A DNA stretch of 61,978 nt, filler included. It is 9 parts of 9 records of this genome, joined end to end, with 100 filler letters (N's around TTAATTAATTAA, not from the genome) between each part and the next. Parts side by side here need not be neighbours in the genome. Positions count along the whole stretch, not along the records: positions 28,187 to 34,131 come from SRR31156797_46689; 8 more parts are not named here. One strand, written 5' to 3'. The translations under genes were made by a program, and so were the position numbers. Below are positions 5,488 through 56,742 of the stretch, piece after piece (positions within the stretch are counted from its first letter, which is position 1; every line of letters begins with the position of its first letter). A model generated the notes under the pieces. The model had not been told where the DNA came from. It made no database searches and saw nothing but the letters and a program-made list of their open reading frames with translations.

Positions 5488-5587
5488 NNNNNNNNNNNNN
5501 NNNNNNNNNNNNNNNNNNNNNNNNNNNNNNNTTAATTAATTAANNNNNNNNNNNNNNNNNNNNNNNNNNNNNNNNNNNNNNNNNNNN
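5488..5587. other. Artificial contig spacer; identical spacers at 10932-11031, 20918-21017, 28087-28186, 34132-34231, 39988-40087, 49676-49775, 56641-56740
   Basis: 100-nt N runs containing TTAATTAATTAA (stops in all frames); gene content and composition change abruptly across them. Confidence 0.98.
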
Positions 5588-10931: not shown

Positions 10932-11229
10932 NNNNNNNNNNNNNNNNNNNNNNNNNNNNNNNNNNNNNNNNNNNNTTAATTAATTAANNNNNNNNNNNNN
11001 NNNNNNNNNNNNNNNNNNNNNNNNNNNNNNNATGATCCTGTCCAACAACTTCTGAAAATGTTTGGGGCCGGTATTTTAATGCCAGAACCTGGTAAGACAT
11101 GGTGTATCCAAAGACCTTTGATGTTTCTTTCTAAAAAGTACAAGGCTTTATACCAGAGGGGGTGTTAAGGGTCAATGTTGGGGAAGACTTTTCGGAACAA
11201 TTGCCATGTAAAATCTCATTATGGTATAA

Positions 11230-20917: not shown

Positions 20918-21017
20918 NNNNNNNNNNNNNNNNNNNNNNNNNNNNNNNNNNNNNNNNNNNNTTAATTAATTAANNNNNNNNNNNNNNNNNNNNNNNNNNN
21001 NNNNNNNNNNNNNNNNN

Positions 21018-28048: not shown

Positions 28049-28245
28049 CTACTCTTCCCCCGCCGCCCCAGCGCTCGGGGCCGTCANNNNNNNNNNNNNN
28101 NNNNNNNNNNNNNNNNNNNNNNNNNNNNNNTTAATTAATTAANNNNNNNNNNNNNNNNNNNNNNNNNNNNNNNNNNNNNNNNNNNNGAACTTAAATATGA
28201 GAAACGCTATAAATGATCCCTGCCCACAAGAGAAGGCGCAATAAT

Positions 28246-28644
28246 TTAATTTCGGTTAGGCACAAGATTAATTATGGTTTCGATAATCCCTTCATTATCG
28301 GCGGAAGGGCCAAAGGAGGCTGCCACGCCCATTTCCTTTAATTTAACGCTATCTCCCGGCGTAATGACCGAACCGCCAACAACGATCGGGATATTCACAC
28401 CTTTATCTTTAAAAAGCCTCAGTAATTCGGGAATGTAATACAAATATTCCCAGGAATGACAGCTGAGGCCCACAACATCCACGTATTCCTGGATGCTGGT
28501 CTGAACGATCATTGGCGGTGTATTAAATCTGCCCGCGTATATGACTTCCATGCCGGCGTCTCGAAGCATCCTCGAAACGGCGATCGCACCAACTTCATGT
28601 TGATCCAGGCCTAGTAGTCCCATAAATACTCTTATTTTACCCAT
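28246..28644 (-). CDS. Cobalamin-binding small subunit of an acyl-CoA mutase
   Basis: GLDQHEVGA (DxHxxG), LRDAGMEVIY, VVGLS, VVGG. Confidence 0.93.
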   Translation of the reverse strand: MGKIRVFMGLLGLDQHEVGAIAVSRMLRDAGMEVIYAGRFNTPPMIVQTSIQEYVDVVGLSCHSWEYLYYIPELLRLFKDKGVNIPIVVGGSVITPGDSVKLKEMGVAASFGPSADNEGIIETIINLVPNRN

Positions 28645-28656
28645 AAAAAAACCTCA

Positions 28657-30252
28657 CTACATCGGCGGGTCGACAAAACCGAACGGATCATAAGGCCAAT
28701 TATAGGCCATACGTAGAACGCCGCCGACTTCCTGGATGGTGGCGTTCGCTTCGGTTGCTTTAATAATTGGATACATCAGGTTTTGATCCGATTTTTTTGC
28801 TATTTGATACACCTCTTGTAAAACCGCTTTAATAAGGTCGGGATCCCTCCTTTTCTTAATTTCCTCGATCTGTTCAATACGCTCCCAGGAGGGTTCGATC
28901 TTGGACTCCGCCACCTCTTTCAACAAAGTATCCTCATGATCCGGAATCTGAAAAACGTTCAAACCGACTTTTTTAAGCTCCTTATCCTTGATCTGACGAG
29001 CATAACGTTCCATGGCCTCATCAATAAGTTTTTTGAACCAGCCTTTATCCGATAATTCCGCGGGATCCCCCATAGACTCGATTTTTACAATCATTTCCCA
29101 AATGCGGTTTTCGATCTCATCCGTCAGGGATTCCATATAGTAAGATCCCCCAAGAGGATCGATTACCTTGCTGACGCCTGTTTCCAGGTGGATTACCTGC
29201 TGGGTCCGGAGTCCAATCAAATGGGATTCCGGACTGGGCGTCCGGTAGGCTTCATCAAAAGCGGAAATCTCCAAGGCTTGGACGCCTGCCATCACCAGGG
29301 CCAGGCTCTGAATTGCGCCCCGCACTACATTCATGACCGGCTGCTGGGCGGTGAGAGACAAGCCGGACGTATGACAGGTGATAACCGTAGCCCATGAGCG
29401 TGGATCCTTGGCGCCGAATTCCTCTTTCATCATACGGGCAAACAAGCGTCTTGTCGCTCTAATCTTGGCGATTTCTTCAAAGAAATCCATACTACAGTTG
29501 ACAAGGACGGCGATTCTCGGGGCAAAGCTGTCAATATCCACGCCACGTCTGAGCAGTTCGCGCACAACGTGGCGTATTTCAATAAAGCCCAGGGCCATTT
29601 CTTCAACTGCGTCGAGTCCGGCTTCGCTGGGGAAATAGGTGTCTTCCACAAAGGCGTGGAACTTGGGCATTTCCTTGCTGCAAAATTCAATAGAGTCACA
29701 GGCCATTCGCAATCGAAGGTTAAAAGGCATCTGAACGGCGTATCCGCAGTCTTCAGCAAAGAAGGGCGCCTGAATCAGGGACCCACGGAGTTTCTTAGGA
29801 GAAACATTATGTTCTTTGGCCACAAGGTATAACCCGGCGATAGCGAAAGGCGCGGGCAACGAGTTTGAAATGGTAATGGAGTCCAACGGGATGTTTTTGT
29901 ACAGATCCCGGTAGTCCTGAAGACAACAAATGGAAACCCCTTGAGTCCCAACCGTTTTGGCCGCCAATGGATGGTCCGGGTCCAGATGGGCCTGTGTCGG
30001 GCTGTCGCCGATCACATCTATCCCCATCTGGCCTTTTTCGATCAAATATTTAATCTGTTCATTGGAGCGGGAGGGGCTGCCCTCCCCGGACAGCTCCCGT
30101 TGAATCCAGCCCCATGATTGGGCGCGAATACCCCGGGTAAATGGATATGCACCCGGATCATTGAGTTTTTCTTCATAATTGTCAGATTTATTATCATCCG
30201 GTTTATATATGGTTTTAAGAGGTATTTGAGAACGAGAGTATTGCTCGGTCAT
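28657..30252 (-). CDS. Divergent B12-dependent acyl-CoA mutase large (TIM-barrel) subunit
   Basis: PGAYPFTRG, FFEEIAKIRATRRL, SLTAQQP, DEA, LRTQQVI, DPLGGSYYMESLT; specificity motifs atypical. Confidence 0.92.
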   Translation of the reverse strand: MTEQYSRSQIPLKTIYKPDDNKSDNYEEKLNDPGAYPFTRGIRAQSWGWIQRELSGEGSPSRSNEQIKYLIEKGQMGIDVIGDSPTQAHLDPDHPLAAKTVGTQGVSICCLQDYRDLYKNIPLDSITISNSLPAPFAIAGLYLVAKEHNVSPKKLRGSLIQAPFFAEDCGYAVQMPFNLRLRMACDSIEFCSKEMPKFHAFVEDTYFPSEAGLDAVEEMALGFIEIRHVVRELLRRGVDIDSFAPRIAVLVNCSMDFFEEIAKIRATRRLFARMMKEEFGAKDPRSWATVITCHTSGLSLTAQQPVMNVVRGAIQSLALVMAGVQALEISAFDEAYRTPSPESHLIGLRTQQVIHLETGVSKVIDPLGGSYYMESLTDEIENRIWEMIVKIESMGDPAELSDKGWFKKLIDEAMERYARQIKDKELKKVGLNVFQIPDHEDTLLKEVAESKIEPSWERIEQIEEIKKRRDPDLIKAVLQEVYQIAKKSDQNLMYPIIKATEANATIQEVGGVLRMAYNWPYDPFGFVDPPM

Positions 30253-30299
30253 AAAAAGTCTCCACTGGCCTTTTAATATACTTAAAAGAGCCCCAGTTA

Positions 30300-31106
30300 T
30301 CAGCCTTTCATTTTTTCGATCTCTTTGACTTCCCTGCGACTTCCCAAGGTGCTGACGTTAAGTCCCATGCCGCCGTCAATAGGAATACTTATTCCATTGA
30401 TATAGGCTGCATGGTCGGAGGCAAGAAAGGCAATCAGGCGTCCCATTTCCTCGACCCGCCCGAAACGACGGGCAGGGATGGCGGCCAGCGAGTTGGCCTT
30501 GATCTCATCGGGCATCATGTTGACCAGTTCGGTGCCGATCAAACCGGGTAAAACAGCATTACAAGTAATGCCGTCCCTGGCGTGCTCCAGGGTTACGGTC
30601 TTTGTCAGACCGAGCAATCCGGCTTTACTGGAAGCGTACCCGATCTGTTTATGCAAACCTCCTGTGGCGGCGCCGGATGAAATATTAATAATGCGCCCCC
30701 ATTTCTTTTCAATCATTGGGCCGATGACTTCTTTTATCATGTTAAAGGCCCCCGATAGATTGATTGAGAGTTCCCGTTGCCAGGACTCGTGGGTCATTTT
30801 GGTTAAACGCGCAATATTAGCGACCAATCCTGCATTATTAACAAGAATATCAATGTCGCCCAAGGCCTGACGGATCTTTTCCACACCATCATGGATTTGC
30901 TCAGGATCCGCCACGTCAAAAATAGCGCTTTCGGACCGGCCGCCCATTTCACGGATTTCTTGGGCCGTATTTTCTACTTCAGGCAGGATGTCCGCAACAC
31001 CCACGGCAGCGCCTTCTTCGGCCAGCACCAAGGCGGCGGCCTTGCCTATGCCTCTGGCCGCGCCCGTAATTAATGCCGATTTTCCTTTTAGAAGCACGGA
31101 GGTCAT
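30300..31106 (-). CDS. SDR oxidoreductase (3-oxoacyl/3-hydroxyacyl-CoA type)
   Basis: TGAARGIG, NNAG, YASSK, PGLIGT; Asp after beta2 suggests NAD preference. Confidence 0.9.
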   Translation of the reverse strand: MTSVLLKGKSALITGAARGIGKAAALVLAEEGAAVGVADILPEVENTAQEIREMGGRSESAIFDVADPEQIHDGVEKIRQALGDIDILVNNAGLVANIARLTKMTHESWQRELSINLSGAFNMIKEVIGPMIEKKWGRIINISSGAATGGLHKQIGYASSKAGLLGLTKTVTLEHARDGITCNAVLPGLIGTELVNMMPDEIKANSLAAIPARRFGRVEEMGRLIAFLASDHAAYINGISIPIDGGMGLNVSTLGSRREVKEIEKMKG

Positions 31107-31113
31107 CTCCTTC

Positions 31114-32733
31114 CTATAAGTCTTTTATCGCGGCTTTGATAACTTTGCCGCCGGGATTCTTCGGAAGCATTTCCTTGGTAAACACAACATATTTGGGTTT
31201 CTTATAGCTGGCGATATGTTTTTTACAGTGCTCGATGATCTCATCTTCCGCAGCCGTCATGCCCGGTTTCAAGAAAATAACGGCTTTCACCGCCTCCTGC
31301 ATCACCTGGTCGGGAACGCCGACAACGGCAGCTTCCATGACAGACGGGTGCTGCATAAGAGCGTTTTCCACTTCCAGGCAATAAATGTTTTCTCCTCCGG
31401 AAACGATCATGTCCTTTAAGCGGTCCACAATATAGACATAACCGTCCTCGTCCATATATCCCATATCGCCGGTGTGGAGCCAGCCGTCCACAAATGTATT
31501 TCGGTCGGCCTCGGGCTTGTTCCAATAACCTTGAACTACGGTGGGGCCCTGGATGCAAACTTCACCCACTTCCCTGGTCGGGAGGTCGTCGCCGCTTTGA
31601 GGCTCTACGATTTTAACCTGCAACACCGGCATGGGCTTGCCTACTGATTCGGGGATGCGCAGGATGTCTTCATGGGTGTTCCAGGTGGCGATGGATGTCG
31701 CTTCGGTCAATCCGTAAACATTTCCGAATTGTACATTTGGAAAGGCGCTGGTCATTTGATTGAATAATTCAACAGGCACCGGGCTTCCGCCAAAGATAAA
31801 CAATTTAAGGGAGCTTAAATCGAAATCCTGGTACGGGGCCATGTTCAGGATCACCCAAAACATGGTCGCCACGCCCGCGCCAAGGGTTATCTTTTCTTCC
31901 TGAATCCTGGTCAAGGTGTCAACAGGATCAAACGCTGAGCGAATAATCGAGCAACCGCCGCTTATCACTCCCATCCCCGTTTGTGAATTAATCCCGGTAG
32001 CATGGAACATGGGGGCGATAATAAGCTGACGAGAATTTTCATCCACCTGGCTCATTTTTAATCCATTGACGGCATTACAGACATAGTTACGATGTGTTTG
32101 CAAAGCCCCTTTCGGCAGGCCGGTCGTCCCGGATGTATACAGTATCGCCGCGCCGTCATCCTCGGTTACCGGGGGATCAGCAACGATCTTTTGGCCAGAA
32201 TCATTTTTTAAAAGATCATTATAGCTGCCGGCTTCATCCGGGATTTCGTCGCCGGTGACGTAAATCCCTTTCAGGGTTTCCACATTGTCCTTGATTCCGT
32301 TTATCGTTTCCAAAAATTCCGGCCCCATTAAGAGGATATTCGCACCGGAATCATTCAACATGTATTCCAATTCAGGCCCGGCGCACCGCCAGTTCAGCAG
32401 GACATTGACAGCGCCAAGGCGTGCGTTGGCGAAATAGGAAACAACATATTCCCACGAATTGGCCATCAGGATTGCTACCCGGTCGCCTTTTTTTACTCCG
32501 AGATTCCTTAAGGAACCCGCTAAATTGTTGCAGAGCCGCTCAAATTCGTTATAGGTGAGTCTGGCGTTATCATCCACCAAGGCTTCGTGTTCGCCAAATT
32601 TACCAACTGTATTTTCCAGCATTTCAACAATTGTCCTGGGGCGATCCTGGTACACATTAATCTCAACGCCGTTGTAAACTTCCTGAACAATTCCTTCATA
32701 GGCTTCAGCGGGAAAACTACCTTTTTCCATCAT
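31114..32733 (-). CDS. Acyl-CoA synthetase (class I adenylate-forming)
   Basis: YTSGTTGLPKG, YGLTEA, GWLHTGD, DRLKDMIVSGGENIY, PGGKV. Confidence 0.95.
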   Translation of the reverse strand: MMEKGSFPAEAYEGIVQEVYNGVEINVYQDRPRTIVEMLENTVGKFGEHEALVDDNARLTYNEFERLCNNLAGSLRNLGVKKGDRVAILMANSWEYVVSYFANARLGAVNVLLNWRCAGPELEYMLNDSGANILLMGPEFLETINGIKDNVETLKGIYVTGDEIPDEAGSYNDLLKNDSGQKIVADPPVTEDDGAAILYTSGTTGLPKGALQTHRNYVCNAVNGLKMSQVDENSRQLIIAPMFHATGINSQTGMGVISGGCSIIRSAFDPVDTLTRIQEEKITLGAGVATMFWVILNMAPYQDFDLSSLKLFIFGGSPVPVELFNQMTSAFPNVQFGNVYGLTEATSIATWNTHEDILRIPESVGKPMPVLQVKIVEPQSGDDLPTREVGEVCIQGPTVVQGYWNKPEADRNTFVDGWLHTGDMGYMDEDGYVYIVDRLKDMIVSGGENIYCLEVENALMQHPSVMEAAVVGVPDQVMQEAVKAVIFLKPGMTAAEDEIIEHCKKHIASYKKPKYVVFTKEMLPKNPGGKVIKAAIKDL

Positions 32734-32787
32734 AATCCTCCTTAGTCACTATGAATCCAAATCAGAATTTGAAAGTCGAGTTCCGCA

Positions 32788-33768
32788 TTATTCGCCGTTA
32801 AAGAGGCGCCGTGGATTGTCTTCAATTATGGTTTTAATTTGTTCATCGTTTACTCCGCCTTGTTTCAGGGCGGGGATAATGTTTTTGAACAGATGAGTTG
32901 GATACCAATTGGCAACTAACGGCAAAGCAGCTTCCGGCAGATTCAAAGGTCGGCCCAACCAGGTCATGATCGTATCATGAGAAATCATCATTTTATCGGC
33001 GTTTCCTCTTTTGATCAATTCAATCAAAACCTTATACCTATCTTCATCCATGGGGCAACCAGCCAGACCTTGAAGACCCATTCGGTCCCAAGACACGTAT
33101 ACGCCCCTTTTGAGTGTATCTTCCTGGTAATCCAGATCCAGATTGTCGGACATATGGCCGATCATGAGACGTTTGGGATCCGCCCCGTTTGCGATTAGAA
33201 AATCAGCCTGTTCCGGCGCCATGGTACCTTCGTGGGTATGAGTGATTATCGGCACTCCCGTATCTCTTGAAACTTCAGCAGCGGCCTTGAAAATCATTTT
33301 TTCGTAATCAGTGATCTCCCCCTTGCTGGAGCCTACTTTTATAACGCCGGCTTTAATGCCTGTTCCACAGATGCCTTCCGTCACTTCCTTATGGAAAAGC
33401 TCATACAATTCGCCGCTGACTTCTCCCAGGGAAGCGCGAAACTTCCAATAGGTTGGAGATCCTTCCTCTTCGAAATAGTATCCAGTCGAGCAGATGATGT
33501 TTACGCCGGTTTTTTCGGAAACTTCTTTCAAGACTTCCACATTTCGACCGCCGTCCAGAGGCGTGGCGTCCACGTAGCTTTTCAAGCCATAGCCTTTTAA
33601 TTCCTCGAAGACGGCCATAGCATTGTTGACAATGGCCTCCGGATCAAAAGGGGCGATAGTCCGGTCGCCTTCCCATCCCGGATAACCAAAAAAAACGTGT
33701 TCGTGCATTAATGTAATGCCCAGTTCATCCGTGGAAATAGGACCCAAAACCGTGTTCACTTGCGCCAT
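32788..33768 (-). CDS. Phosphotriesterase-like lactonase/hydrolase
   Basis: VNTVLGPI, TLMHEH, GVIKVG (carboxylated Lys site), ITHT, IGH, ISHD binuclear metal ligands. Confidence 0.92.
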   Translation of the reverse strand: MAQVNTVLGPISTDELGITLMHEHVFFGYPGWEGDRTIAPFDPEAIVNNAMAVFEELKGYGLKSYVDATPLDGGRNVEVLKEVSEKTGVNIICSTGYYFEEEGSPTYWKFRASLGEVSGELYELFHKEVTEGICGTGIKAGVIKVGSSKGEITDYEKMIFKAAAEVSRDTGVPIITHTHEGTMAPEQADFLIANGADPKRLMIGHMSDNLDLDYQEDTLKRGVYVSWDRMGLQGLAGCPMDEDRYKVLIELIKRGNADKMMISHDTIMTWLGRPLNLPEAALPLVANWYPTHLFKNIIPALKQGGVNDEQIKTIIEDNPRRLFNGE

Positions 33769-33964
33769 GAGAGTTCCTCCTTTTCAACATTGTTTAAGTC
33801 TTAATCAGAAAGCATTACTCATTTTTGCGTCGTCAGCCTGTTATACTCGGCCTACAGACCCGAATTTTATATCTGCGCTAATTACAGTTATTATCCTTTC
33901 CATTCTCCGTTTGATTCAGGACAGGTTTTATTACAAGCCGCATTTTATTTAAGATTACTTCTGT

Positions 33965-34131
33965 TCAGGCTTTTTTAAGGGCGATTGCTTCAACGACCAA
34001 TTCCTCGGCCAGCTTGAGTGTCGGCTGTAAATGGATATCTTCATGTTTAGATTGAGATTTTATGCCGTCAAGTTGGATAACGCCGACAAAAAGCCCCCAA
34101 AGGATGTCCGTCAACTGGAAGACGTTCATCC
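33965..34131 (-). CDS. Probable TetR-family regulator, C-terminal fragment
   Basis: ...LTDILWGLFVGVIQL...HLQPTLKLAEELVVEAI* resembles deltaproteobacterial TetR C-termini; HTH not in window. Confidence 0.5.
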
Positions 34132-34232
34132 NNNNNNNNNNNNNNNNNNNNNNNNNNNNNNNNNNNNNNNNNNNNTTAATTAATTAANNNNNNNNNNNNN
34201 NNNNNNNNNNNNNNNNNNNNNNNNNNNNNNNC

Positions 34233-39987: not shown

Positions 39988-40088
39988 NNNNNNNNNNNNN
40001 NNNNNNNNNNNNNNNNNNNNNNNNNNNNNNNTTAATTAATTAANNNNNNNNNNNNNNNNNNNNNNNNNNNNNNNNNNNNNNNNNNNNG

Positions 40089-49675: not shown

Positions 49676-49919
49676 NNNNNNNNNNNNNNNNNNNNNNNNN
49701 NNNNNNNNNNNNNNNNNNNTTAATTAATTAANNNNNNNNNNNNNNNNNNNNNNNNNNNNNNNNNNNNNNNNNNNNAAACAGCAAAAAACCGTTGAAAAAA
49801 CTGCTAAAGTCAAATTCAGAGCAGGGCTATTCAGAACGGGTCAATGAATTCTGGGAAATGAACTTAAAATTCTGTCCGGGCAGGATAGAATAACACGCCG
49901 GCCCGGACAGATAATTATA

Positions 49920-56640: not shown

Positions 56641-56742
56641 NNNNNNNNNNNNNNNNNNNNNNNNNNNNNNNNNNNNNNNNNNNNTTAATTAATTAANNNN
56701 NNNNNNNNNNNNNNNNNNNNNNNNNNNNNNNNNNNNNNNNAG

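Follow-up and report, generated by a model that had tools for sequence, protein, structure and literature searches.

A lactonase gene heading an operon of a divergent B12-dependent acyl-CoA mutase, with a candidate role in hydroxy acid catabolism

What does a phosphotriesterase-like (PTE) lactonase do at the head of an operon encoding a B12-dependent acyl-CoA mutase? This arrangement occurs in a 61,978-nt stretch of DNA, hereafter the window, which consists of nine contigs (GC 0.30 to 0.60) joined via N44-TTAATTAATTAA-N44 linkers. The operon fills one complete contig of 5,945 nt (28187-34131), and the RND pump and sugar ABC transporter that flank it in the window are thus not its neighbours. 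As originally predicted, it comprises five co-oriented genes, all on the minus strand, whose tight packing is reflected by intergenic gaps of 54, 7, 47 and 12 nt, calculated from the coordinates, in the order PTE, CoA ligase, short-chain dehydrogenase (SDR), mutase large subunit (mutL) and B12-binding small subunit (mutS). Pfam and NCBIfam profile matches agreed with the gene families initially assigned, and the closest relatives were Thermodesulfobacteriota MAGs, consistent with the deltaproteobacterial origin first suggested. The claim that no known mutase operon includes a PTE-like lactonase also stood, with none found in a literature search.

Physical linkage of the operon genes is supported by the assemblies of two runs. 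In run X1, probably the source run, a single contig of 7,647 nt spans all of 28187-34131. Run X2 belongs to a second, independent study; there, a 3,739-nt contig spans the SDR, ligase and PTE genes (30295-33932, 187 differences) and a 2,135-nt contig spans mutS and mutL (28187-30291, 51 differences), with no piece bridging the SDR/mutL junction among the X2 matches listed. Three more X1 contigs among the matches listed (records 2-4) overlap positions 28187-28217 only, which indicates that the assembly graph branches there. Since the contig stops 59 nt past the mutS stop codon (28187..28245), the absence of MeaB, which had been remarked upon, says little.

The probable TetR-family regulator initially proposed upstream of the PTE is in part borne out. 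Just the last 54 codons and stop codon of this gene are present (33965-34129, in the part 33965..34131, minus strand), truncated by the contig end. The fragment itself had no Pfam match, but BLASTP analyses aligned it, at identities of 42-54%, with the C-terminal ends of 12 regulators located upstream of related clusters, the group representative of which (L022:6657-7349) matches TetR_N at 4e-17. The operon is probably catabolic and under the control of this regulator, itself probably of the TetR type. The 196-nt spacer between regulator and PTE (33769..33964, minus strand) carries an AGGAGG ribosome-binding site, 8 nt ahead of the start codon of the PTE gene; a search for inverted repeats in it was negative, and promoter-like sites over the whole contig occurred at chance level (10 found versus 7.6 +/- 2.8 expected).

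The putative large, substrate-binding subunit of the mutase is encoded by mutL (28657-30252, minus strand; 531 aa; PF01642, 4.3e-135). With the methylmalonyl- (MCM), isobutyryl- (IcmF), ethylmalonyl- and pivalyl-CoA (PCM) mutases, the window enzyme has in common the PF01642 barrel, the B12 domain and, presumably, the radical 1,2-shift of the CoA-thioester group. Yet it was predicted to lie outside the characterised groups, and this view was upheld by the generic TIGR00641 being the sole NCBIfam model above cut-off, by the missing MCM, ICM and HCM pocket residues and by its separate clade, in direct sequence comparisons with MCM, IcmF/ICM and HcmA. Its identity reaches 65-68% with family copies versus 27-40% with 16 other paralogs. 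Within the clade, identities range from 52 to 84% and do not exceed 40% to any paralog; its branch has an SH-aLRT support of 100% and a stem length of 1.84, and its members span at least seven phyla. No published description of this clade was found in our literature search.

The divergence is concentrated in the substrate pocket, for which we assume the residue numbers and roles of MCM and HCM. None of the Tyr/Arg or Phe/Gln pairs that we take to be the respective signatures of MCM and ICM is found in the window mutase. A Leu occupies the MCM Tyr89 position (also HCM Ile90) in 68/68 clade sequences, Asp the Ser114 position, Ile the Ala116 position (HCM Asp117) and Gly the Phe117 position, while S-G-Y-H becomes E-D-T-Y-[FY], QTSG becomes HTSG and QNDILKE is lost. 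The catalytic His244 has no counterpart, 58 sequences carrying Phe at this position and 10 carrying Tyr, and Arg207 corresponds to either Gly/Ser170 or Tyr171. At positions aligned with the pocket, the clade has gained invariant acidic or polar residues (Asp79, Glu203, Asp204, Glu328 and Tyr171). These pocket replacements are invariant throughout the clade, and the smaller residues (Tyr to Leu, Phe to Gly and the Arg207 equivalent) would fit a larger, non-carboxylate substrate. Judged from the alignments, this widespread and uncharacterised clade has kept the CoA-binding and B12-binding parts of the enzyme around a rebuilt substrate pocket.

Which genes accompany this mutase was assessed in 51 fully flanked clade loci, SDRs being counted within 6 kb. 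The small subunit is adjacent in 46/51, and partners include an SDR of the same group as that of the window (25/51), an enoyl-CoA hydratase (21/51), a TetR regulator (18/51), a ligase (17/51) and a MeaB-type chaperone (16/51). The conserved unit thus defined comprises regulator, SDR, mutL and mutS, together with the hydratase and/or the ligase. A minimal TetR-ligase-SDR-mutL-mutS operon devoid of hydratase occurs in loci L022 and L072, and in L023 up to mutL, where the available sequence ends, suggesting that ligase, SDR and mutase may suffice. The window ligase (31114-32733, minus strand; 539 aa, AMP-forming; PF00501, 6.6e-91; PF13193, 3.1e-20; NF004837, 508.8 bits versus a cut-off of 476) has generic fatty-acyl or aryl-CoA ligases as PDB relatives and orthologs with 63-71% identity in five mutase loci (L004, L016, L022, L023 and L072). 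Orthologs of the FabG/PhaB-like SDR (30300-31106, minus strand; 268 aa; PF13561, 2.1e-58), with 65-78% identity, directly adjoin mutL in the closest relatives.

The lactonase does not belong to this unit. Conservation of the neighbourhood had been put forward as a test of the original prediction, and it fails for the PTE, which lies beside the mutase in 1/80 related loci; conversely, no mutase was detected within ~10 kb of PTE orthologs (at least 60% identity) in any of six unseeded genomes. The PTE, occasional as it is among related loci and outside the conserved module, would on our reading be an accessory feed-in enzyme of the lineage. Its assignment as lactonase-type (32788-33768, minus strand; 326 aa, Geobacillus/Deinococcus type; PF02126, 1.8e-62) was corroborated by its best solved relatives, GsP/GkaP and Dr0930, with full-length matches over residues 3-324 (3f4c, 1.1e-113; 3tn4, GkaP, 1.2e-113; 3fdk, Dr0930, 4.7e-112) and by alignment with the PDB template, in which the metal-ligand stretches MHEH, IKV, THTH, GHM and SHD agree. 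GkaP prefers delta- and gamma-alkyl lactones, with rates of 9.9e5 per M per s for delta-decanolactone and 7.3e4 for gamma-hexyl-gamma-butyrolactone (PMC4338136). The branched lactone initially envisaged found no backing, the related lactonases taking straight-chain alkyl lactones. These relatives were studied in isolation, whereas the window PTE heads an acyl-CoA operon.

With such a patchy distribution, the PTE might be a passenger, inserted between regulator and ligase of an older TetR-ligase-SDR-mutase operon and metabolically unlinked to a mutase acting on either of the rival substrate types considered below (tertiary 2-hydroxy acids or non-oxygenated acyl-CoAs), or on another. Consistent with this, L022 and L072 (and L023 as far as it extends) represent the same operon without PTE, and orthologs of the PTE are found in numerous unrelated settings. 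We nevertheless regard this as unlikely. The PTE is co-oriented with the ligase and separated from it by only 54 nt, the PTE-ligase-SDR order is retained in a ~95%-identical strain from another study, and independent cases of a PTE next to a CoA ligase are seen in L101, L102, L104/L105, L145/L146, L152 and L158. In another mutase locus, L011, a PTE and DUF7064/65 follow ~2.5 kb downstream with the same orientation, and the L011 mutase belongs to the same 10-row subclade as that of the window.

The company kept by PTE orthologs elsewhere points to a possible substrate. In metagenomes, orthologs with 53-69% identity are found in loci that also encode CoA ligases, SDRs and APH-type kinases; one adjoins a DUF6285 protein, and one adjoins an acyl-CoA dehydrogenase (ACAD) that matches ACAD11 best among PDB entries (3.6e-82 versus ~1e-46 for ordinary ACADs). 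This set matches the LvaA/B/C/D/E pattern, and the Lva and ACAD10/ACAD11 routes for levulinate and 4-hydroxy acids solve the block of beta-oxidation by the 4-hydroxyl (PMC6692424 and PMC11342911). In LvaABCDE of Pseudomonas putida, the ligase LvaE and the SDR LvaD act on 4-oxo- or 4-hydroxyacyl-CoA (same sources), and the contig likewise has a ligase and an SDR. In contrast to these systems, whose clusters with APH kinase and ACAD11-like ACAD harbour the PTE orthologs, the window contig has neither kinase nor ACAD, and a B12 mutase stands in place of LvaABC. The window ligase and SDR are 63-78% identical to copies from mutase clusters and only 32-38% to those from PTE/Lva-like clusters, which leaves the PTE as the sole link to 4-hydroxyacid genes. 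The APH kinases and DUF6285 protein of the PTE-ortholog loci had no match in any of 80 mutase loci. An ACAD11-like gene is also present in 8/11 mutase-bearing genomes of the phylum sample, so the mutase is no simple replacement of the ACAD11 route.

On these grounds, we tentatively propose a route from lactones via 4-hydroxy acids. By homology, the lactonase would hydrolyse gamma- or delta-lactones bearing an alkyl chain, and the AMP-forming ligase would convert the resulting hydroxy acid to a CoA thioester. The core of the operon, the SDR and the split adenosylcobalamin mutase, would then act in either order. The mutase could shift the thioester carbon of 4-hydroxyacyl-CoA from C2 to C3, yielding 3-hydroxy-2-methylacyl-CoA, or, if the SDR acts first, take 4-oxoacyl-CoA and yield 2-methyl-3-oxoacyl-CoA. 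After SDR oxidation, a thiolase could split this last compound into propionyl-CoA and a shorter acyl-CoA. If so, the mutase would do the job performed elsewhere by LvaA/B/C or ACAD10/11. Several observations count against a 4-hydroxyacid: GkaP favours delta- over gamma-lactones ~13-fold (PMC4338136), 5-hydroxy acids need no rearrangement, the enoyl-CoA hydratase of 21/51 loci has no clear role, and the His244 equivalent is missing. More broadly, the contig points to carbon-skeleton rearrangement via an unstudied, widespread branch of acyl-CoA mutases.

The Aquincola HCM cluster reportedly includes a CoA ligase. Ligase, mutase and FabG-like dehydrogenase are exactly the set of the known 2-HIBA/acetone pathway, and an HCM/RCM-type reaction would have a tertiary 2-hydroxy-2-methyl acid (2-hydroxyisobutyrate or longer) activated by the ligase and rearranged to 3-hydroxyacyl-CoA, from which the SDR would form 3-oxoacyl-CoA, the lactonase being unrelated or merely hydrolysing an ester precursor. 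The 2-hydroxyisobutyryl-CoA mutase HcmAB (PDB 4r3u) has the same split large subunit and ~130-aa B12 subunit, HcmA and HcmB are the best solved-structure matches of the two window subunits, and the Leu found where HCM has Ile90 represents a conservative substitution. In Desulfosarcina cetonica and Desulfococcus biacutus, the genes for a B12 mutase and for a dehydrogenase annotated as '3-oxoacyl-ACP reductase' lie in a cluster and are induced together (PMC7888143), and a FabG-like dehydrogenase gene is likewise clustered with the mutase genes here. However, the HcmA match carries little weight: mutL scores 295.9 bits (MCMs, 215-248; IcmF, 128), whereas the canonical paralogs L084 and L087 reach 589.6 and 415.8. 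Ile stands where HCM has Asp117, and mutL does not retain the HcmA stretches QADILKE and GYH. The D. cetonica cluster has a 64.7 kDa large subunit and the order SDR-MeaB-small-large (PMC7888143), versus 531 aa and SDR-large-small here. The contig encodes no thiamine-dependent lyase, and tertiary 2-hydroxy acids, as a matter of general chemistry, form no lactones. This alternative therefore appears rather unlikely.

Equally doubtful, if not slightly more so, is a PCM/ICM-like reaction on a non-oxygenated branched or alicyclic acyl-CoA, such as that of a quaternary or 2-alkyl-branched acid, with SDR and hydratase serving later beta-oxidation. The carboxylate-binding pocket positions of MCM are hydrophobic or small here, and the hydratase, together with other frequent neighbours (Liv-type ABC transporters, ligases, ACADs and 3-hydroxyacyl-CoA dehydrogenases), would suit this role. 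However, Asp79, Glu203, Asp204, Glu328 and Tyr171 would better accommodate a polar substituent than a plain alkyl, and the ACAD required before hydratase and SDR lies within 6 kb in only 4/80 related loci.

Whatever its substrate, sequence conservation supports a working B12 enzyme. For the small subunit mutS (28246-28644, minus strand; 132 aa; PF02310, 6.4e-18; TIGR00640, 91.4 bits versus a cut-off of 57.45; best PDB match HcmB, 4r3u_C, 2e-22), an alignment of 67 sequences shows D-Q-H-E-x-G-A conserved at 95% or more. A catalytically dead or non-mutase mutL, comparable to the MCM beta subunit, would account for the Phe/Tyr at the His244 position, the loss of QNDILKE and the remodelled Gln197-Glu203 stretch, but is highly improbable given that the replacements are themselves invariant over at least seven phyla, that a dedicated B12-binding subunit with intact DxHxxG is adjacent in 46 of the 51 loci, that a MeaB chaperone gene is present in 16 of the 51, and that 81 invariant positions, including those of the CoA channel and adenosyl site, are common to the clade and the canonical paralogs.

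The window comprises nine contigs of 5.2-9.9 kb each (GC 0.296-0.596), joined by eight N44-TTAATTAATTAA-N44 linkers (5488-5587, 10932-11031, 20918-21017, 28087-28186, 34132-34231, 39988-40087, 49676-49775, and 56641-56740). Gene adjacency over these linkers is therefore artificial, and the nine contigs may come from different source organisms; owing to their wide GC differences, the eight remaining contigs were kept apart from the genome of the studied contig. The operon region corresponds to one entire contig (28187-34131; 5,945 nt; GC 0.48), and the RND pump and the sugar ABC transporter that flank it in the window are located on different contigs. Its minus strand encodes the 3' end of a regulator gene (54 codons; 33965-34129), a PTE-family hydrolase of 326 aa (32788-33768), an AMP-forming acyl-CoA ligase of 539 aa (31114-32733), a short-chain dehydrogenase (SDR) of 268 aa (30300-31106), a large subunit with an MM_CoA_mutase domain (mutL, 531 aa; 28657-30252), and a B12-binding small subunit (mutS, 132 aa; 28246-28644). 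The genetic organization is compact, with intergenic gaps of 54, 7, 47, and 12 nt from the PTE gene onward and an AGGAGG preceding the PTE start. No Rfam match was obtained on the contig, promoter-like and terminator-like sites occurred there at chance level, and no inverted repeat was found in the regulator-PTE spacer.

Assemblies of public sequencing runs support this arrangement, and the gene set and its physical linkage are established. In the run that is probably the source sample (X1), a single contig of 7,647 nt spans the entire stretch and extends it by 1,702 nt, which, judging by the coordinates, probably adjoin the regulator. A run from another study (X2) yielded a 3,739-nt contig with the SDR, the ligase, the PTE, and most of the upstream spacer (30295-33932; 187 differences), as well as a 2,135-nt contig with mutS and mutL (51 differences); none of the X2 pieces listed bridges the SDR/mutL junction. 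Three further listed X1 contigs overlap just the last 31 bases (28187-28217), where their loose ends diverge, indicating that the assembly graph branches at this contig end, probably at a repeated word. The gene for the chaperone MeaB was not found on the contig, which stops 59 nt after mutS, so that the absence of this or further genes tells little.

Both subunits belong to the B12-dependent acyl-CoA mutases. PF01642 covers the full-length barrel of mutL (residues 7-516 of 531, profile positions 3-510 of 512; 4.3e-135), which scored 410.7 bits with TIGR00641 (cut-off 303.8). The mutS product, a B12-binding domain, passed the TIGR00640 cut-off and displays the DxHxxG base-off/His-on motif as D-Q-H-E-V-G, the stretch D-Q-H-E-x-G-A being at least 95% conserved in 67 aligned small subunits. 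These are generic domain models, and none of the NCBIfam equivalog models was passed by the mutase, with 331.8 bits for the MCM model NF006944 (cut-off 876) and 157.8 bits for the IcmF model NF045497 (cut-off 1500).

A scan of species-representative genomes revealed 135 confirmed mutase relatives, of which the best 80 were kept (loci L001-L080). These 80 are 52-77% identical to the window mutase and are broadly distributed among Thermodesulfobacteriota, Bacillota, Acidobacteriota, Actinomycetota, the Alpha-, Beta-, and Gammaproteobacteria (Pseudomonadota), and other phyla. One cultured carrier, Desulfotruncus alcoholivorax DSM 16058 (L020), whose cluster reads mutL-mutS-ECH-ligase-SDR, was recovered among the best 80 of 135, which makes a direct test feasible. 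A large protein collection contained 7,988 matches among 8,000 candidates, and the best 120 of the 7,988 (65-99% identity) bear generic names or are unnamed. Likewise, the ESM Atlas returned generic "methylmalonyl-CoA mutase" clusters only. Three family-bearing genomes possess 3, 9, and 12 PF01642 genes, and the window mutase shares 65-68% identity with the four family copies in these genomes versus 27-40% with their 16 other PF01642 proteins. In a maximum-likelihood tree of 68 family members and these 16 paralogs, whose canonical-motif members stand in for the characterised ICM, ECM, PCM, RCM, and D. biacutus mutases, a single branch parts the two sets (SH-aLRT support 100%; stem length 1.84 changes per site). 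Not included in this tree were 11 family ORFs whose called length was unusual, L016, L022, L023, and L072 among them. No description of the clade was found in the full-text-searchable literature, a body that does not extend to subscription journals. One family copy, L099 (G003:C246:87389-88981), has an in-frame TAG inside an otherwise full-length match.

Pocket positions were located by pairwise alignments to HcmA and human MCM together with the family alignment of 68 sequences, and the MCM, ICM, and HCM residue numbers given here are presumed equivalents of the aligned positions. In all 68 sequences, Leu occupies the position of MCM Tyr89 and HCM Ile90, Asp that of MCM Ser114, and Ile that of MCM Ala116 and HCM Asp117, and Gly is found at the MCM Phe117 position in 66/68. 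The S-G-Y-H stretch with His244 becomes E-D-T-Y-[F/Y], Q-T-[AS]-G becomes H-T-S-G (68/68), L-H-T-N becomes x-E-I-S (Glu in 68/68), and Q-N-D-I-L-K-E is replaced by Q/E-x-P-[FL]-[YF]-x-E. The equivalent of MCM Arg207 is either Gly/Ser170 or the invariant Tyr171, the two alignments being one position apart there. Both Tyr89 and Arg207, which we take to be the binders of the substrate carboxylate in MCM, are therefore missing from the family. The same applies to the presumed catalytic His beside a conserved Tyr (MCM Tyr243-His244): the Tyr is kept in 68/68 sequences and the His is replaced by Phe in 58 and by Tyr in 10, whereas Y-H is present in all six canonical paralogs (L081-L086). In alignments and tree alike, the mutase belongs to a distinct, conserved, and unnamed clade with an invariant, rebuilt pocket. 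Outside the pocket, 81 invariant positions are common to the family and the six canonical paralogs, among them the W-x-x-R Arg and the stretches F-A-P-R and D-E-A. Together with the conserved mutS motif and the MeaB gene adjacent in some lineages, this conservation gives the protein the look of a functional AdoCbl-dependent acyl-CoA mutase that acts on another substrate, not of a decayed copy.

Two explanations compete for this substrate with the gamma-oxygenated acyl-CoAs considered below. One is HCM-like chemistry on tertiary 2-hydroxy acids. The best PDB matches of both subunits are indeed HcmA/HcmB (4r3u; mutL 5.8e-87, 295.9 bits; mutS 2e-22), and the residues that we assume to form the HCM pocket (Ile90, Asp117, and Gln208) have been replaced. 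Compared with 4r3u_A, Ile is changed to Leu, the Asp of I-S-T-D-F-D is changed to Ile, and M-A-Q-K-E-Y aligns with C-G-Y-A-V, these replacements being invariant across the clade. The HcmA top match was rejected as a sign of HCM function since ordinary paralogs score far higher to HcmA (415.8 bits for L087 and 589.6 bits for L084). The other explanation has the mutase acting on plain branched acyl-CoAs; the pocket lacks the MCM carboxylate binders, and the Phe/Gln pair presumed to be the ICM/IcmF signature at the Tyr89 and Arg207 positions is not found either, the first position being Leu.

Several more groups of PF01642 proteins without the canonical Tyr/Arg/His pocket occur in G002 and G003, the genomes with 9 and 12 such genes (L087, L088, and L090-L097). 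Examples are L087, with R-E-V-T-G and Y-D, and L090/L091, with Q-Q-M-V-F-G. Other mutase specificities are probably encoded in these two genomes, and an unassigned paralog clade is thus not rare in itself. What distinguishes the clade of the window mutase is how widely it occurs, together with an invariant pocket and a conserved operon.

To describe this operon, ORFs of the best 80 of 135 loci were clustered, and representatives were named by Pfam and NCBIfam. Among the 51 of these loci that have 3 kb or more of sequence on each side, mutS was found within 6 kb of mutL in 46, the SDR in 25, a 295-aa crotonase (NF009125) in 21, MeaB in 16, the ligase in 13 (plus four with a long FadD11-like ligase), and two groups of TetR regulators in 10 and 8. 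Within the same distance, the closest 15 fully flanked loci (at least 64% identity) had 12 SDRs, 9 hydratases, 9 TetRs, and no MeaB. In typical loci, TetR-ECH-SDR-mutL-mutS are followed either by a ligase or by a Liv-type ABC transporter, and Bacillota display TetR-mutL-mutS-ECH-ligase-SDR beside beta-oxidation genes. The window-type order TetR-ligase-SDR-mutL-mutS was found again in L022 and L072, up to mutL in L023, where the available sequence ends, and in part in L004 and L016; in these five loci, identity to the window proteins is 63-71% for the ligase and 73-78% for the SDR. The usual companions of the mutase are thus SDR, hydratase, ligase, TetR, and MeaB, and the PTE is not among them. 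For the regulator, the comparison concerns its C-terminal 54 aa, the N-terminus, site of the TetR_N helix-turn-helix, lying beyond the contig end. This fragment had no Pfam match. Twelve proteins whose genes precede related mutase clusters share 42-54% identity with it at their C-termini, and the representative of these 12 carries a TetR_N domain (4e-17). This C-terminal homology makes the "probable TetR" of the original prediction a reasonable, if indirect, assignment.

PF02126 extends over residues 11-323 of the PTE (1.8e-62). Its stretches MHEH, IKV, THTH, GHM, and SHD, which presumably contain the binuclear-metal ligands (HxH, Lys, His, His, and Asp), align with identical stretches of Geobacillus 3f4c, so that the domain is full-length and its metal-ligand stretches are in place. 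The best PDB relatives are 3f4c (1.1e-113), 3tn4/3tn3 (GkaP), and Deinococcus Dr0930 (3fdk; 4.7e-112); matches to SsoPox-type enzymes (ca. 1e-46) and to Brevundimonas/Agrobacterium phosphotriesterases (ca. 1e-38) were far below these, and the OPH equivalog NF041153 gave 127.6 bits (cut-off 500). GkaP is a lactonase, with 9.9e5 per M per s for delta-decanolactone, 7.3e4 per M per s for gamma-hexyl-gamma-butyrolactone, and only trace paraoxonase activity (PMC4338136). By homology to these closest characterised relatives, the PTE is predicted to be of lactonase type, and the name "lactonase" originally proposed for it holds on the same basis.

The genomic company of the lactonase differs from that of the mutase. 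The original prediction placed it in one pathway with the mutase, and this part of the neighbourhood proved not to be conserved: among the best 80 of 135 loci, a PTE gene was found in L011 alone (70% identity), on the same strand, about 2.5 kb downstream of mutL and behind a DUF7064/DUF7065 gene. The L011 mutase belongs to the 10-member subclade of the window mutase (95% support). That the PTE is a passenger gene agrees with this single recurrence, and its place in the window, 54 nt ahead of the ligase gene on the same strand, speaks for membership of the operon.

Metagenome loci with PTE orthologs (53-69% identity) revealed a different setting. L101 (2658-11705) encodes an acyl-CoA dehydrogenase (ACAD), TetR, an APH-family kinase, PTE, ligase, SDR, ACAD, and a 3-hydroxyacyl-CoA dehydrogenase; L102 (3349-12783) has an APH kinase, TetR, ETF beta, ETF alpha, PTE, ligase, ACAD, and SDR; L103 (= L112; L103:4460-8978) has NUDIX, DUF7064/65, APH kinase, DUF6285, and PTE; and L104 and L105 have ligase and PTE. 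The L102 ACAD matched ACAD11 at 3.6e-82 versus ca. 1e-46 for ordinary ACADs. Kinase, small partner protein, ACAD10/11-type ACAD, SDR, and ligase combine here into the LvaA/B/C/D/E pattern by which levulinate and 4-hydroxy acids are catabolized (PMC6692424 and PMC11342911). The portion of the literature on Lva and ACAD10/11-like clusters that was available contains no mention of a lactonase as feed-in. The studied contig carries neither an LvaA-type APH kinase nor an LvaC-type (ACAD10/11) ACAD, whereas APH kinases and Lva-type genes do adjoin the PTE orthologs in L101, L102, and L103/L112. The three APH kinases beside PTE orthologs share 23-32% identity, and neither they nor the DUF6285 protein had a match in the best 80 of 135 mutase loci.

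In a phylum sample of 401 genomes, PTE matches at or below 1e-60 were detected in 37 genomes, and eight had a PTE of at least 60% identity. Two of the eight showed ligase-PTE beside TetR, a LolA-like protein, and a MacB-type transporter, four showed DUF7064/65-PTE (two of them with two adjacent ACADs), and two had unrelated neighbours. Only two of the eight, the seeded genomes, have a family mutase near the PTE, at a distance of 14 kb in G002 and at L011 in G003. The PTE was present in 6/11 mutase genomes versus 31/390 others (Fisher p = 1.4e-4) and, with the two seeded genomes removed, in 4/9 versus 31/390 (p = 0.0046), lineage and genome size being uncontrolled in both comparisons. ACAD11-like genes were just as strongly enriched (8/11 versus 47/390), and the best PTE and ACAD matches are concentrated in the same few genomes; co-occurrence of PTE and mutase was therefore dropped as evidence.

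The DUF7064/DUF7065 protein, 62-64% identical between loci, is encoded immediately ahead of the PTE ortholog in L011, L147, and L149, and two genes upstream of it in L103 and L112 (L011:6083-8158, L103:5408-8978, L147:7789-10537, and L149:9524-11899). Two ACADs accompany the DUF7064/65-PTE pair in L149 and are found near the PTE in L151.

As a tentative reading, we favour a 1,2-shift on a gamma-oxygenated acyl-CoA. The lactonase would open a lactone to a hydroxy acid, the ligase would activate this acid to an acyl-CoA, and the SDR and the mutase pair would then handle the product. The mutase might convert 4-hydroxyacyl-CoA to 3-hydroxy-2-methylacyl-CoA or, if the SDR acted first, 4-oxoacyl-CoA to 2-methyl-3-oxoacyl-CoA, the ketone analogue of the conversion of succinyl-CoA to methylmalonyl-CoA; thiolysis would follow. 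This reading is preferred because it assigns a step to each of the four enzymes in the order of their genes, matches the company of the lactonase elsewhere, suits a pocket without carboxylate binders and with new invariant Asp, Glu, and Tyr residues, and explains operons of ligase, SDR, and mutase alone. It is weakened by a PTE link of two loci, by a ligase and an SDR that, at 32-38% identity to their counterparts in the Lva-like loci, are not orthologous to them, by the ACAD11-like gene of most mutase genomes, by the preference of GkaP for delta-lactones, by a frequent hydratase with no clear role, and by the missing His244.

To our knowledge, acyl-CoA mutases have been assigned only a few specificities, and every addition has given access to a pathway and yielded a biocatalyst, as in the cases of 2-HIBA, pivalate, and the ethylmalonyl-CoA pathway. 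It is rather unlikely, yet conceivable, that the clade represents a new specificity interconverting 4-hydroxy- or 4-oxoacyl-CoA and 3-hydroxy-2-methyl- or 2-methyl-3-oxoacyl-CoA, and hence a B12-dependent, ATP-free alternative to LvaABC/ACAD10/11 phosphorylation for gamma-lactones, 4-hydroxy fatty acids, and levulinate in anaerobes and other bacteria. Such a specificity would explain lactone and levulinate breakdown without the kinase route in some bacteria and would offer a one-step source of 2-methyl-branched 3-oxoacyl-CoAs.

In a three-member subclade adjoining the window mutase (L008:77-1780, L009:9998-11596, and L011:3058-4656), no recognisable gene for a B12-binding subunit follows mutL; the next sequences are a fragment with a URO-D match in L008 and ORFs without Pfam matches in L009 and L011. 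Loci in the 58-64% identity band, represented by L030, L031, L033, L034, L038, L041, L043, L046, and L049 (Acidobacteriota, 'Candidatus Multivorans'), usually have the mutase pair without SDR and hydratase, followed by MeaB in 9/16, and several have PQQ-dependent alcohol dehydrogenases and a DUF3604 protein nearby, which hints at a different feed-in, possibly of alcohols or diols. In L072 (1179-5327) and L023 (907-5070), a BcrAD_BadFG/DUF2229 "CoA enzyme activase" of ca. 1,385 aa is encoded just upstream of the TetR-ligase-SDR-mutase operon.
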